From Clostridia bacterium (GTDB lineage: Bacteria > Bacillota > Clostridia > UBA1381 > UMGS1253), in NCBI GenBank assembly GCA_045652745.1, contig JAZRUW010000009.1, positions 23,865 to 87,864 on the forward strand: a stretch of 64,000 bases of DNA. Reading direction: 5' to 3'. This document shows positions 18,776-54,964 of the stretch, piece after piece. Each line of letters begins with the position of its first letter. Position 1 is the first letter of the stretch. The notes beneath the pieces were generated by a model, which worked only from the letters and a program-made list of their open reading frames with translations, was not told where the DNA came from and ran no database searches. The position numbers and the translations under genes are program-made.

Positions 18776-18824
18776 TACAAAAGGAGTCTGGGGCGAGAGT
18801 CTCAGACTCCTTTTGTATTTTTTT
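18776..18824 (+). terminator. Intrinsic terminator with a conserved-family 12-nt loop
   Basis: 15-bp perfect stem TACAAAAGGAGTCTG / CAGACTCCTTTTGTA, loop GGGCGAGAGTCT, followed by a T-tract. Confidence 0.8.
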
Positions 18825-45975: not shown

Positions 45976-46518
45976 TTACGGTCTCCAAACCACGTTTTCT
46001 TTTACAATGCGCGCGGGATTGCCGGCAACGACACAGTGCGGCGGCACGTCCTTGGTGACAACCGCACCGGCGCCGATTACTGCGCCTTCGCCGATTGTTA
46101 CACCTTTTAATATTGTAGCGCCCTGGCAAATCCATACGTTATCTTCGATGGTTACGGGCTTCATGATTTCGGTTTCGCTGTTTAGTTTGTGGTAGTCGCG
46201 GTCGATAATCGTACAGTTCCAGGAAATATTGCAACCCGACCCGATGCGTACGCACTTGCCTGCGTGAATTTCCGTGCGGTCACCGATGTAAGTGTTTGCG
46301 CCGATGTGCAGCTCAGCGCGGCCGTCCGTGCCCCATACGCTCAGCTTGCAGCCGCGGTGCAACAGCACGCGGTCACCGGCGGTGAGGATGGCGTTCTTTT
46401 TTAAAATGCGTACCCCGCGCTCCGCGCGCAAAAGCCTGCCGCACTTTTTAAAATAAAACCGCTTATATATGCCGCGCAGAACGGCAAAACCGTTTGTAAA
46501 GAATTCGGACAAATTCAT
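45976..46518 (-). CDS. Hexapeptide-repeat (LbH) acetyltransferase
   Basis: [36 protein letters not shown] and AGNPAR. Confidence 0.9.
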   Translation of the reverse strand: MNLSEFFTNGFAVLRGIYKRFYFKKCGRLLRAERGVRILKKNAILTAGDRVLLHRGCKLSVWGTDGRAELHIGANTYIGDRTEIHAGKCVRIGSGCNISWNCTIIDRDYHKLNSETEIMKPVTIEDNVWICQGATILKGVTIGEGAVIGAGAVVTKDVPPHCVVAGNPARIVKENVVWRP

Positions 46519-46603
46519 ATTTTTCGCTCCTGAAACTTTTTGTAAGTATATTTATAAATAGTATAGCATAAAATGCTTGCTCCGTCAACAAAACGGGCGC
46601 AAA

Positions 46604-46910
46604 AAAAGAGAGCCTGAAGGGCGAGTGTTCTTAAGGATAAAACGCCTTAAAAAGCAATATTTTGGCGAATAGCCGTGTTAAAAATGACCGAAATCCGCGA
46701 GGATGTCGGTCATTTTTGCCTTGCTCTTCATCCAAACTATTACCTTTTAAGGTGCCGTTGGCAGTTTTAGTCGAGGAATTTTGTCGGAAAGAGGAACAAA
46801 AAAATCTGCATTATACTCGCGTATAATGCAGATTTTTTGTGAACTATTTTCGGTAAATTACCGACTAAAACCATTGTATCCTTGAGAACACTCGCCCAAG
46901 ACTCTCTTTT
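46604..46910. repeat. Composite inverted-repeat element (two 108-bp palindromes inside about 37-bp terminal inverted repeats)
   Basis: Terminal IRs at 46604-46642 and 46874-46910; internal palindromes at 46645-46752 and 46764-46871. Confidence 0.75.
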
Positions 46911-46932
46911 CGTTTGAATTTATAACTCTAAA

Positions 46933-48351
46933 TTAAAGTTTGAAGTCTACGCCTGTGTTGGCAGCTTCCGGATCTTCTGTCTTGAATTCGTAGTCCTTAC
47001 CCGGCAGGATAGCGTTTAATACGATACCTGCGATGGAAGCACATGCGAGAGCGGACAGAGTGATAGTCAAAGTGCCGATCGGGAAGGAGATGGAACCTAA
47101 ACCGAGGGCGGATACCAGGATAACCGCTGCAACGATGAGGTTACGGCTCTTTGTAAAGTCAACCTGATTTTCAACTACGTTACGAACACCGATTGCGGAA
47201 ATCATACCGTACAAGATGAAGGAAACGCCGCCGATTACAGCTGTCGGAATCAGGTTAACGAGTGCAGCAAACTTCGGAGAGAAGGAAAGGATTACAGCGA
47301 TGATGGCTGCAATGCGGATTACCTTCGGGTCGTAAACTTTAGACAGAGCGAGTACGCCTGTGTTTTCACCGTAAGTTGTGTTTGCAGGGCCGCCGAAGAG
47401 GGATGCCAGCGTGGTAGCAATACCGTCGCCGAGAAGTGTTCTGTGCAGACCCGGGTTTTCGATGAAGTTTTTGCCAACGGTGGAGCTGATTGCGCAGATG
47501 TCACCGATGTGCTCCATCATAGTAGCAAGAGCGATCGGCATAATTGCAACGATAGAGCTTACCACCAAAGAGGTGTTGGACCAGTCGATTCCGCCGAATA
47601 CAGTGCCGTTCCACTTGATCGGGAAACCAATCCAAGCGGCGCTCTTGAGGTTTTCAAGTGCGGAAACGCTGAACAGCTGGAGTGCCGGATTGCCGCCGAG
47701 TGTGATGTAACCATCCACCGGTACACCGAAGCAGATTGCTAAAATTGCAGCGATTGCGCAAGAACCGAGAACACCGATTAAAATCGGAATAATTTTTGCC
47801 ATGCCTTTACCCCAGATGTTAAAGATAACAACGAGCGCAAGTGCGATGAAAGCGATGAGCCAGTTGGTTTTGCAGTTGTTTACTGCGCTGCCTGCCAGGC
47901 CAAGACCGATTGCAATGATAATCGGGCCTGTTACTACCGGCGGGAAGAAGCGCATAACCTTCTTTACGCCTACGAGTTTGATGAGTGCCGCAAGTACGAG
48001 GTACAAAAGACCTGCGCATGCTACGCCTAGACATGCATACGGAAGAAGCTGTGCATTTGTCAGCGTGCCGTTACCGGCGAGCGGTGCAATTGCGCCGTAA
48101 CCGCCCAAGAAAGCAAAGGAAGAACCTAAGAAAGCCGGAACCTTGCCCTTTGTTACCAGGTGGAAAAACAGCGTACCCAAACCTGCCATGAGCAGTGTGG
48201 TTGCAACGTCCAAACCGGTCAGTAGCGGAACGAGTACCGTTGCGCCGAACATTGCAAACATGTGCTGGAAGCCAAGAACGAGCGTCTTGGCGGTGCCCAA
48301 TTCACGTGCATCGTAAACCGGGCCGGAAATTACCTTTTTCTCTTTTGCCAT
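46933..48351 (-). CDS. uraA: Uracil/xanthine (NCS2) permease, UraA/PyrP type
   Basis: GFQHMFAMFGATVLVP, FLGSSFAF, EHIGD and NTTYGENTGV NCS2 signature. Confidence 0.85.
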   Translation of the reverse strand: MAKEKKVISGPVYDARELGTAKTLVLGFQHMFAMFGATVLVPLLTGLDVATTLLMAGLGTLFFHLVTKGKVPAFLGSSFAFLGGYGAIAPLAGNGTLTNAQLLPYACLGVACAGLLYLVLAALIKLVGVKKVMRFFPPVVTGPIIIAIGLGLAGSAVNNCKTNWLIAFIALALVVIFNIWGKGMAKIIPILIGVLGSCAIAAILAICFGVPVDGYITLGGNPALQLFSVSALENLKSAAWIGFPIKWNGTVFGGIDWSNTSLVVSSIVAIMPIALATMMEHIGDICAISSTVGKNFIENPGLHRTLLGDGIATTLASLFGGPANTTYGENTGVLALSKVYDPKVIRIAAIIAVILSFSPKFAALVNLIPTAVIGGVSFILYGMISAIGVRNVVENQVDFTKSRNLIVAAVILVSALGLGSISFPIGTLTITLSALACASIAGIVLNAILPGKDYEFKTEDPEAANTGVDFKL

Positions 48352-51659: not shown

Positions 51660-52541
51660 ATGCAAACGTACTTGGAAAATTACATACAACATCTTTCCAA
51701 AGCGCGAAAGCTGTCGGAAAATACGCTTTCTTCGTATCGGCGTGATATACAGGCCTACCTGCAATTTTTGAGTGGCCGCGGTATCACGGACCCGAAACAA
51801 ATCAATAAAACGGTTGTACTTACATATTTACTCCAAATGCAAAAACAGGGCAAAGCGGCCTCGACCGTGTCGCGCATCCTCGCGTCTTTGCGCTCGTTTC
51901 ATGCCTTCCTCGCACAATCGGGTATGGCCTCTGAAAATGTAGCGCTTGGCTTGGAAACACCGCGCGTACAGCGCAAGCAGCCGCAAGTTTTAACTGCGCA
52001 GGAAGTAGAACGTCTGCTCGATGCGCCACAAAGCACCGACCACAAGGGATGCCGTGATAAAGCGATGCTCGAACTGCTCTATGCCAGCGGCATGCGTGTC
52101 AGCGAACTGATTTCTCTCAAACTCGATGACATCAATCTTCAACTCGGATTTGTGCACTGTGGCTCTAAAAAAGAAAGAATTATTCCGCTCGGAAAATATG
52201 CAACCGATGCTATCGCCGCTTATCTTTCCGGCGCGCGTGAACATCTTTTGCATCAAAATACAACTGACGCCCTATTCGTCAACACCAATGGCAAACCCAT
52301 GACTCGCCAAGGTTTCTGGAAGCTCATTCGTTCCTATAAAACCAAAGCGGAAATTTCCTGTGAGCTTACGCCTCACACCCTCCGTCATTCCTTTGCCGTT
52401 CACCTTCTCGAAAACGGTGCCGACCTGCGCTCCATTCAGGAAATGCTCGGACACAGCGACATATCCTCTACGCAGATCTACGCGCAGATGCAAAAGAACA
52501 GAATCAAGGATATATATCAAAAATCCCACCCCCGCGCATAA
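51660..52541 (+). CDS. xerD: Site-specific tyrosine recombinase XerD (RipX-like)
   Basis: LSENTLSSYRRD, LYASGMRVSEL, HTLRHSFA and LGHSDISSTQIY catalytic motifs. Confidence 0.9.
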   Translation: MQTYLENYIQHLSKARKLSENTLSSYRRDIQAYLQFLSGRGITDPKQINKTVVLTYLLQMQKQGKAASTVSRILASLRSFHAFLAQSGMASENVALGLETPRVQRKQPQVLTAQEVERLLDAPQSTDHKGCRDKAMLELLYASGMRVSELISLKLDDINLQLGFVHCGSKKERIIPLGKYATDAIAAYLSGAREHLLHQNTTDALFVNTNGKPMTRQGFWKLIRSYKTKAEISCELTPHTLRHSFAVHLLENGADLRSIQEMLGHSDISSTQIYAQMQKNRIKDIYQKSHPRA

Positions 52542-52815
52542 AAAAATGGTGAATTTTGTGTATTACTTCGTTGCCGGTTTGGCCCGCATATAAAAATATA
52601 GCGGACAACCCACCGCCTCGTACTACACGAAAATTCCCTCATTTTTTACTTGGTGGCAAGTATAGCGACGAGGCAGCCGCCTAGCGCTGCATCCGAATTT
52701 CCTCGTTTTTTTACTTGGATGGACGTGTGAAGGGGATTGTGGAACTTGCCCGCATATAAAAATATAGCGGACAAACCGCCGCCTCGTACTACACGAAAAC
52801 TCCCTCATTTTTTAC
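52541..52815. repeat. Mosaic repeat: 107-bp imperfect palindrome, a degenerate unit, and a 68-bp direct repeat
   Basis: 52582-52649 and 52748-52815 are identical at 65 of 68 positions (period 166 bp). 52541-52647 is self-complementary. Confidence 0.85.
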
Positions 52816-54911: not shown

Positions 54912-54964
54912 AAAAGACCGCAATCTCTTGGACGAGTGTTCTCAAGAGATTGCGGTCTTTTTTT
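54912..54964 (+). terminator. Intrinsic terminator with a conserved-family 12-nt loop
   Basis: 19-bp perfect stem AAAAGACCGCAATCTCTTG / CAAGAGATTGCGGTCTTTT, loop GACGAGTGTTCT. Confidence 0.85.

Follow-up and report, generated by a model that had tools for sequence, protein, structure and literature searches.

A 283-bp foldback element, probably mobile and MITE/REPIN-like, in the loops of predicted intrinsic terminators of a Clostridia genome

The window analysed here is a 64-kb stretch of DNA (contig C9, positions 23865-87864) from the metagenome-assembled genome of a Clostridia bacterium (the host genome, or G000; 1.54 Mb in 33 contigs, 95% complete), and it contains a palindromic element between two genes of the minus strand. 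The upstream gene encodes a xanthine/uracil permease family protein (46933..48351, minus strand, 472 aa; Pfam Xan_ur_permease, E = 2.3e-81), and the next gene after the element on that strand encodes a hexapeptide-repeat transferase (45976-46518). BLAST of the region against its own genome delimited a repeated unit of 283 bp at 46617-46899. From end to end this unit comprises an AA dinucleotide (46617..46618), the left arm of an 18-bp outer stem (GGGCGAGTGTTCTTAAGG, 46619..46636), two 108-nt hairpins around a mini-hairpin, the right arm of the outer stem (TATCCTTGAGAACACTCGCCC, 46880..46897, pairing with 46619-46636) and a closing AA (46898..46899); both dinucleotides were identified by comparing the flanks of the copies. 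The left arm is exact or near-exact in all host-genome copies and has co-varying replacements in related species. Its ends read GGGCG..TTAAGGATAAAAC, and its terminal inverted repeats, GGGCGAGTGTTCTTAAGGATA and TATCCTTAAGAACACTCGCCC, have 0-2 mismatches in all copies.

The inverted-repeat analysis confirmed two imperfect palindromes of 108 bp, with GCGA loops on the plus and minus strands, respectively, just as the original prediction had described them from the sequence. The first palindrome (pal1, 46645-46752; inverted repeats I3 and I4) has outer arms at 46645-46665 and 46732-46752 and an inner 17-nt stem at 46680-46696 and 46701-46717 (94%) that closes the GCGA loop. Its conserved arms are asymmetric (TTTTGGCGAATAGC..GTT on the left, GCCTTGCTCTTCATCCAAA on the right), its apex (46680-46717) carries the loop on the plus strand followed by T5, and the apex stem is swapped from GACC/GGTC to GGTC/GACC in 4 copies. 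The pal1 module, which scores 143.7 bits with its covariance model (R1), is common to two further families, fam2 and fam3. The second palindrome (pal2, 46764-46871; inverted repeats I2 and I9, covariation columns 151-260) has stems at 46764-46773/46862-46871 and 46775-46816/46821-46862. Its terminator-like apex (46799-46838) lies between an A-run and a T-run and has its GCGA loop on the minus strand, where the pattern scan found 18 pairs followed by T6. Between the palindromes lies the mini-hairpin TGCC-GTT-GGCA (46753..46763), also present in fam2; its columns (141-149) are paired in 23/23 sequences and include GC to AU changes. The sole open reading frame (ORF) in the element is a 54-aa frame with a TTG start. 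A small peptide in pal1 (ATG..TAA, 11 codons) was considered and rejected, as fam2 reads ACG in place of ATG.

The element had been given terminal inverted repeats at 46604-46642 and 46874-46910. These repeats are real, and belong to outer arms of 43 nt that are 77% complementary (46600-46642/46874-46916), but their ends had been drawn 12-13 nt too far out. Because the outermost nucleotides, AAAAGAGAGCCTG and GACTCTCTTTT, are missing from the other copies, and because related species have an intact terminator at this place, this part is host DNA, namely the two halves of the permease gene's intrinsic terminator. The gene-proximal half (46900..46910, minus strand) reads GACTCTCT plus TTT on the plus strand and AAAAGAGAGTC on the gene strand, and the permease stop codon lies about 20 nt from the terminator stem. 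On the plus strand, the gene-distal half (46601..46616, minus strand) consists of AAAAAAAGAGAGCC and the TG of the loop; in the permease transcript it would supply the 3' half of the stem, ahead of a U7 tract.

The host genome carries six full copies of the element, 94-98% identical and each with different flanks, plus three that are cut at contig ends and a truncated copy at C1:4643. Five other species of the same genus (the congeners, G001-G005) all carry many copies, of which 20 were fetched for comparison of their context. A covariance model of pal1 detected the family in 11/19 genomes, representing three of the four genera of the taxonomic family. With its multiple copies and differing flanks, the element is therefore not single-copy, and its earlier description as non-autonomous and similar to miniature transposable elements with inverted repeats (MITEs), to REPINs or to bacterial interspersed mosaic elements (BIMEs), the latter two built from repetitive extragenic palindromes (REPs), is upheld.

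The original prediction overlooked the main feature of the element, which is its insertion into the loops of intrinsic terminators. The flanks of each copy are unlike the flanks of the other copies, yet the left flank is complementary to the right, with an A-run before the former and a T-run after the latter (e.g., aaaaaGTGGTGTTCC-[element]-GGAACACCACttttt and aaaaaGCAAGGATGG-[element]-CCATCCTTGCtttt). Empty sites were reconstructed by joining the two flanks, keeping one copy of the dinucleotide, and folding the product. At 8/9 sites in the host genome, occupied by fam1, fam2 or a mini form, the joined flanks gave a hairpin of A-run, stem, loop, stem and T-run, with z scores of -4.5 to -8.8 and, for the weaker stem of the window copy, -2.7. 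These sites were recognised as intrinsic terminators by pattern only (a stem-loop with G+C, a T-run, and a position after a stop codon). They lie 15-35 nt past stop codons, the genes in question being arranged in tandem or convergently, and the element can point either way with respect to the upstream gene. The same terminator context was found in the five congeners and, for the sister family fam2, in three genomes of other genera. Predicted terminator hairpins are thus the normal target of the family, nearly all of the roughly two dozen copies examined being located in the loop. Since terminator loops make up a tiny share of the genome, this precision probably does not come from selection acting on random intergenic insertions.

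Comparison with the congeners supplied the empty sites that the original prediction had proposed to look for, albeit in other species. At the permease site all five congeners have an uninterrupted hairpin, AAAAAAGAGAGTC-CGAA-GACTCTCTTTT, with the loop variants CGGA, CGCA and ATGCA, and the host genome reads AGAGAGCC-TG-AA[279 bp]AA-GACTCTCT. The ancestral tetraloop was therefore presumably TGAA, with the element now at its AA; the window copy is inserted in the loop of a pre-existing predicted terminator, for which the congeners' hairpins are an empty site at genus level. Retaining one AA restores this TGAA tetraloop, comparable to the CGAA, CGGA and CGCA of the relatives, consistent with one copy of the dinucleotide being derived from the host. 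At the site on contig C4, the same convergent genes are separated in the relatives by plain terminators of divergent sequence. Metagenome runs yielded contigs too fragmented for polymorphic empty sites within the species to be seen.

Folding of positions 46590-46925 gave -144.6 kcal/mol (z = -12.5) for the plus strand and -145.6 kcal/mol (z = -15.5) for the minus strand. An alignment of 23 copies, from six species plus fam2, yielded a consensus fold of four parts: (i) the 18-bp outer stem, (ii) pal1 (108 nt), (iii) a 3-bp mini-hairpin (TGCC..GGCA), and (iv) pal2 (108 nt). On either strand the element is thus modelled as a Y, in which the outer stem closes the two 108-nt hairpins and the mini-hairpin. 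Compensatory double changes affect 41/104 pairs and are densest in the outer stem, whose right arm (columns 269-286 of alignment A1) takes up to four to five standard pair types at a single position when the subfamilies are compared. No part of the element varies more in sequence than this stem, yet its pairing is kept: GGGCGAGTGTTC pairs with GAACACTCGCCC in one version, GGGCGTCTTCAG with GTGAAGGCGCC in another, and GGGCGTGC.. with ..GCACGCCC in a third. The conserved parts are the asymmetric arms of pal1 (TTTTGGCGAAT..GTT and GCCTTG..CTTCATCCAAA), the CGCGAG apical loops, and the A/T runs at each apex. A pattern scan found two internal terminator-like sites where 0.5 were expected, and both apices look like bidirectional terminators. 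Neither strand is richer in G-U pairs in any of the three families, and one GCGA loop is on the plus strand and the other on the minus strand; these two observations argue for constraint on both strands, and hence for a function as DNA or in either orientation, rather than as one RNA. No Rfam model matched the 64-kb window at gathering score, and nothing credible appeared at E up to 10; the best sub-threshold match, to suhB/mmgR (23.6 vs 41 bits), fell on the flank. The earlier remark that the element belongs to no described family agrees with its absence from Rfam.

Contrary to the earlier statement that no target-site duplication was obvious, the unit is flanked by a direct AA repeat. Five of the six full copies in the host genome, together with a 55-bp mini form, are flanked by AA..AA, and the sixth full copy by TT..TT. 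Among all copies with both flanks readable, oriented by their interior, about 21 have direct dinucleotides (AA/AA or TT/TT) vs three inverted, which speaks against the dinucleotides as a simple extension of the palindrome. Their identity differs by subfamily, with about 12 AA to 2 TT in the GGGCGAGTG type, and about 1 AA to 6 or more TT in the GGGCGTCTTC and GTGC types. In the main subfamily, NAA is always found at the end of the left flank and CCCAA at the end of the element. Because the dinucleotide tracks the subfamily and is not distributed 1:1, we infer, from counts of modest size, that it is specified by the element and must match the target. A requirement for matching dinucleotides is how a 2-bp crossover site works, and equally the cleavage pair of left target and right end used by HUH/Y1 enzymes. 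A subfamily-specific dinucleotide fits such a matching crossover or cleavage site better than it fits a random staggered cut.

Related families share the plan of the element and its modules. Members of fam2 (278 bp; C3:74078 and C1:10582) have a pal1 core 86% identical to that of the window copy, combined with another outer stem (GGCCACCGCCAGATAAGG / CCTTACCTGGCGGTGGCC) and another pal2; they too lie in terminator loops, with AA or TT flanks, and fam2 is the form that occurs in other genera. The third family, fam3 (283 bp, seven copies), is also laid out as a Y; in it the GCAAGGCAAAAA-hairpin-TTTTAACAC module returns with position and orientation both opposite, and its copies are not located in terminators. 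Re-use of a homologous hairpin module with other outer stems, and its reversal in fam3, bear out the earlier suggestion of interchangeable modules. Copies of fam3, whose ends read GGCTTAAGCAGATGCGTCAGTATCCGAAC, were found at C12:44861-45143, C1:4797-5079 and the contig ends of C3, C19, C22 and C30. This family breaks the assembly at five contig ends, and two of its copies adjoin sequence resembling a tRNA 3' end (GGGGTTCGACTCCCCTC).

Many weaker solo hairpins of 110-120 nt with conserved pal1 arms were also found by the pal1 covariance model. Two similarities within the window had been proposed previously. The match of the right arm of pal1 to 52679-52697 at 15/19 positions was not reproduced. 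For the kinship of pal2 with 52541-52647, we found only a weak model match at 52539-52655 (23 bits, E about 1e-3), and this was to pal1; the segment may be a distant member of the same hairpin superfamily, and not a relative of pal2. The larger region, 52539-52815, consists of tandem, partly duplicated hairpin modules that begin at the stop codon of a xerD-like recombinase gene (51660-52541), and similar solo or tandem units occur at C17:10035, C12:94704, C4:67315, C28:106422 and C30:40091.

Shorter derivatives occupy other terminators. In the 55-bp form (C30:134938-134992), the two terminal repeats are joined by AAACCATTG, and two 28-bp palindromes, GGGCGAGTGTTCTTAAG.ACA.TCGCCC, lie at C6:28680 and C13:24884. 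Direct repeats, AAAAC and (C)TTAA(G), border the 55-bp and 28-bp forms, which may have arisen by deletion inside an unstable palindrome or may represent steps of nested insertion. In at least four other terminators (window 54930, window 18791, C29:25715 and C12:128499), the loop is made up of precisely the 13 initial nt of the terminal repeat (GGGCGAGTGTTCT or a close variant), with no AA flanks. The terminator homologous to that at C12:128499 contains a full element in G005, which suggests that the remnant is a decay product. At window 18791, the stem recurs in three congeners around another loop, of 8 nt. In the window, the remnant-loop terminators span 54912-54964 and 18776-18816, with the loops GGACGAGTGTTCT and GGGCGAGAGTCT, the first 12-13 nt of the terminal repeat. 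At the former, which is the glutamate dehydrogenase terminator, G001, G003 and G004 have a pal1-like hairpin of about 120 nt in place of this, and the site looks like a recurrent hot spot.

An autonomous parent was not found. Self-BLAST of the host genome detected no repeat longer than 500 bp, and nhmmer and covariance-model searches detected no pal1 and pal2 split around a gene. An exact scan for the pal1 apex across 185,579 species genomes matched only two congeners, both "Clostridia bacterium" metagenome assemblies, one of them from goat colon. A degenerate scan of metagenome contigs for the terminal repeats gave 45 matches, one of which was real and truncated; viral contigs gave one chance match, and BLAST against plasmids and phages gave none. 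The absence of a parent from draft assemblies is not proof that none exists. Seven half-copies in G002, considered as possible ends of a parent, were plain truncations on inspection.

Profile searches of the six genus genomes provided an inventory of potential mobilising enzymes. The rve domain is absent from G000, G004 and G005 and present in G001-G003, where its loci lack the terminal repeats of the element. Both DDE_Tnp_1 and DDE_3 are absent from all six genomes, the resolvase profile is absent from G000, G002 and G005, and IS110 is found only in G004. Y1_Tnp has matches in all six. The original prediction proposed a search for a REP-associated tyrosine transposase (RAYT) or other Y1 gene flanked by modules of the element, and this was borne out in part: two Y1 genes resembling RAYTs are present in the host genome, encoding proteins of 165-175 aa that contain HUH and Y motifs and score 65-67 bits on NCBIfam REP_Tyr_transpos (cut-off 80), but the genes are flanked by REPs of the GTAG type, not by element modules. 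One lies at C9:93196-93694, about 5.3 kb past the right end of the window, and the other at C23:2066-2593, within C23:1922-2762. Of the 19 genomes of the taxonomic family, 10 have both Y1 genes and the element, 7 have neither and 2 are discordant (17/19 concordant; Fisher test about 0.001, uncorrected for phylogeny, and about 0.03 outside the genus).

We conclude that 46617-46899 is probably one copy of a non-coding, non-autonomous, MITE/REPIN-like foldback mobile element that targets terminator loops. Because the outer stem changes freely as long as it stays paired, and the internal arms and loops are conserved, the element may be recognised and moved as folded DNA rather than through a conserved terminal sequence. 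The element would be joined to its target at a dinucleotide identical to its own, AA for the GGGCGAGTG subfamily and TT for the GGGCGTCTTC subfamily. This dinucleotide would have to lie open in the single-stranded loop of a hairpin; one way in which this could come about is the folding of terminators in single-stranded DNA of the replication fork. The mover could be a single-strand-specific HUH/Y1 transposase of the RAYT or IS200 kind, acting in trans. Such an enzyme is a tentative leading candidate, because a single-strand model naturally explains why only nucleotides of hairpin loops are hit. Termination of the upstream gene would remain largely intact after insertion, through the element's own predicted two-way terminators and because the split host stem would be pulled back together; this would explain why such insertion sites are tolerated.

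A number of observations count against parts of this interpretation. The copy on C29 has an atypical hairpin context, directly after the stop codon of a short ORF; in G004, one copy (L047) separates a terminator stem from its T-tract; and AA/TT flanks occur in a few copies. The co-occurrence with Y1 genes mixes RAYT-like with IS200-type matches and is uncorrected for phylogeny, and G004, with its many copies of the element, has only Y1 of the 250-aa type and a pseudogene. GTAG-type REPs (REP_A, GTAGGGGCGATTCACGAATCGCCC; REP_B, GTAGGGCAGGGGCTTGCTCCTGCC) flank the RAYT-like genes and also lie within them, and none of 10 Y1 loci contains core-like element sequence. The element itself has no GTAG foot, its feet being AA or TT followed by GGGCG, and the REP types do not co-vary with its outer stem between species. 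The symmetry and terminal inverted repeats of the element are unlike IS200/IS605, and its inverted repeats with a 2-bp direct repeat fit a DDE enzyme. Finally, an assembly that is 95% complete and in 33 contigs could simply miss the responsible insertion sequence (IS). The sole sequence tie between the RAYT-associated REPs and the element is the stem base GGGCGA..TCGCCC, which is the same as that of REP_A; the roughly 19 copies of REP_A and 22 of REP_B in the host genome all have the GTAG foot, and none lies in a terminator loop. A link between RAYT and the element is thus not established.

The REPs themselves show further features. They are conserved across the genus, a REP-bearing query having matched many contigs of G001-G005, and REP_B and REP_A often form heterologous inverted doublets about 20 nt apart, resembling BIMEs (e.g., C4:92936-92997, C12:42146-42207 and C30:135036). 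The RAYT-like gene on C23 has REP doublets on its flanks (cGTAGGGGCGATTCACGAATCGCCCg), and its ORF takes in that REP twice more, in frame and in opposite orientations, giving VGAIHESP and RAIRESPL on translation. Its counterpart on C9 contains GTAGGGCAGGGGCTTGCTCCTGCC twice in frame (VGQGLAPA and AGASPCP).

Terminal inverted repeats combined with a 2-bp direct repeat are the classical mark of DDE transposases; the IS30, IS630 and IS5/ISL2 families make duplications of 2-3 bp, and IS30-family enzymes prefer palindromic targets. The element could accordingly be a classical MITE, an internally deleted copy of an IS, mobilised in trans by a DDE transposase that would bind the terminal inverted repeats and cut with a 2-bp stagger, with the parent missing from the drafts. 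The 18-21-bp terminal inverted repeats, the 2-bp direct flanking repeat and the high identity of the copies all suit this origin, as do the rve-type transposases of G001-G003, and the parent might have been lost from a fragmented metagenome assembly, whose contigs often end in repeats. We nevertheless consider it unlikely. The terminal repeats are the least conserved part of the element and change in a compensatory manner, the opposite of what is expected of an end bound by a transposase, and symmetric ends predict a 1:1 ratio of AA to TT within a subfamily, where about 12:2 and 1:6 were seen. Moreover, G000 lacks rve, DDE_Tnp_1 and DDE_3 as well as any repeat over 500 bp, G004 and G005 are also without rve, the rve loci of the other congeners have no terminal repeats, and no longer relative was found in GTDB genomes, metagenomes, viral contigs, plasmids or phages.

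The short derivatives bear on a second alternative, in which hairpin elements were inserted stepwise into hairpin loops, and the resulting unit now also moves as a whole. The layers would be a 28-bp palindrome, GGGCGAGTGTTC-TTAA-GAACACTCGCCC, a hairpin of 19 bp, GGATA..TATCC, and the two hairpins of 108 nt. Intermediate 28-bp and 55-bp forms do lie in terminator loops; each layer is edged by short direct repeats (TTAA, AAAAC) that are possible duplications, pal1-like hairpins stand alone elsewhere in the genome, and the outer stem around the shared inner module varies from family to family. The same series would, however, result from deletions between short direct repeats in an unstable palindrome, and CTTAAG, being self-complementary, is therefore present on both arms. 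The inner two-hairpin unit without its outer stem was found in a terminator in 0 of about 30 copies, and the site with a full element in G005 and a 13-nt remnant in G000 argues for decay; overall, stepwise nesting seems improbable. Still less plausible, in our judgement very much so, is a functional structured RNA (a stabiliser of the 3' untranslated region (3' UTR), a terminator module or a small RNA family) whose mobility is secondary or extinct. The very stable conserved fold with covariation, GNRA-type GCGA loops, terminator-like hairpins, copies at gene 3' ends, and pal1-type asymmetric arms conserved across genera would all be expected of such an RNA, and a structured RNA family was among the possibilities first raised. 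As a primary nature it is disfavoured by the equal folding and equal G-U counts of both strands, the GCGA loops on opposite strands, the presence of copies in both orientations relative to the upstream gene and the lack of any Rfam family match, and the presence or absence of copies at orthologous sites of different species, together with 94-98% identity among copies, indicates recent spread by insertion.

Returning to a mobile element that targets terminator loops, we compared it with known systems. REPINs and REP/BIMEs (PMC3337134) are likewise short, non-coding, hairpin-forming and multi-copy, lie at gene 3' ends and are mosaics of palindromic units; as in REPIN/RAYT systems, the host genome has single-copy RAYT-like genes, and the stem base equals that of REP_A. 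In Pseudomonas fluorescens, one class of REP doublets is flanked by A/T runs and has been read as a co-opted terminator (PMC3337134). Unlike REPINs, the element has no GTAG foot, is not beside RAYT genes, and is much larger, with 283 bp and three nested hairpins; the A/T runs and stems beside it belong to host terminators and change from site to site, relatives show an empty site, and a 2-bp direct repeat flanks it. With bacterial MITEs such as Correia, RUP, Nezha and Chunjie (PMC10969869, PMC3184786), it shares a length below 300 bp, the lack of an ORF, terminal inverted repeats, a short direct repeat, multiple copies, stable predicted stem-loops, and truncated or deleted derivatives. It differs from them in that no parent IS with matching ends was found, its terminal repeats change compensatorily instead of being conserved, and it targets a structure (the terminator loop), not a sequence such as TA. 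As the element lacks both the GTAG foot and the flanking RAYT genes of REPINs, and no parent IS as expected of a MITE was found, we class it as MITE/REPIN-like and as a member of neither group.

Hairpins also serve as targets of other mobile elements. IS1397 inserts in the loop region of BIMEs. IS1397 and ISKpn1 (IS3 family) and IS110/IS1111 elements are cited in PMC3184786 (Wilde et al. 2001; Tobes & Pareja 2006) as inserting into REPs or other palindromes. These share with our element a specific insertion in or next to extragenic hairpins; unlike it, they are autonomous and recognise a repeated sequence, the targets here sharing only their shape and AA/TT. Profile searches found no IS3 or IS110 gene in the host genome. 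Class C group II introns home to intrinsic terminator stem-loops, where their insertion is thus harmless; they are ribozymes of about 2 kb with a reverse transcriptase and insert just downstream of the hairpin. The terminator stem-loop is a shared target signal, but our element lies inside the loop and matches no intron model in Rfam. IS200/IS605 elements are strand-asymmetric and have no terminal inverted repeats. PATEs, which derive from IS200/IS605, share these traits, have asymmetric subterminal hairpins and are inserted 3' of a fixed tetra- or pentanucleotide, with no duplication. In contrast to PATEs, our element is symmetric and has such repeats; its NAA left flank and CCCAA end would nonetheless fit a pair of left target and right end. 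The Firmicute repeat of PMC3049150, as described in the part of that article consulted, is also small and interspersed, folds with a terminator-like hairpin and lies at gene ends. By that description it differs in being about 105 bp long and presumably unrelated in sequence, and is not reported there inside pre-existing terminators. In the related literature, which covers MITEs, REP/REPIN-RAYT systems, SPRITE, REP-targeting insertion sequences and the A/T-run-flanked REPIN class, a search that was not exhaustive found no description of a repeat family integrating into the loops of unrelated, pre-existing intrinsic terminators.

How REPs, REPINs and MITEs choose their sites, and what moves them, is largely unsolved outside a few Proteobacteria. 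The target here is unusually clear and structural (a terminator loop between stems unrelated in sequence, with an empty site in sister species and a 2-bp signature), and the mechanism is therefore testable. If an HUH/Y1 enzyme is responsible, this would tie the RAYT-like genes of gut Clostridia to a real mobile substrate; otherwise, the mover would have to be an unknown enzyme. It is conceivable, if rather doubtful, that the element represents a mode of transposition not recognised before, in which elements of folded single-stranded DNA are integrated by a domesticated-looking RAYT-type HUH enzyme or a structure-specific recombinase. Intrinsic terminators are the commonest stable hairpins in a genome. 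Under such a mode, integration would take place at a matching dinucleotide in the loop of any hairpin of single-stranded DNA, terminators would be a universal safe harbour, and the element's own two-way terminators would replace the interrupted function. RAYTs would then gain a demonstrable mobilisation substrate outside Proteobacteria, and a target would be chosen by the shape of the DNA and not by its sequence.

The elements also affect how such genomes are assembled and annotated. They break metagenome assemblies, three contig ends of the host genome lying within this family, and they inflate the apparent structure of 3' UTRs, such that they may be mistaken for riboswitches or small RNAs in uncultured Clostridia. 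Assembly breaks at several contig ends are likewise associated with a multi-copy gene at C4:93124-94575, which encodes a 483-aa protein; its copies are 88-95% identical, and partial copies end C20, C24, C29, C31 and C4. This gene was considered as a transposase and set aside, as no resemblance was seen by eye only, with no family search made. In the interval between the window copy and the hexapeptide-repeat transferase gene, a pattern scan identified a promoter-like site on the minus strand (46560..46588) that would serve that gene; it reads TTGACG, 17 nt, TG and TATACT, and matches the consensus, the sole basis for its assignment, at 10/12 positions, with an extended -10 TG.

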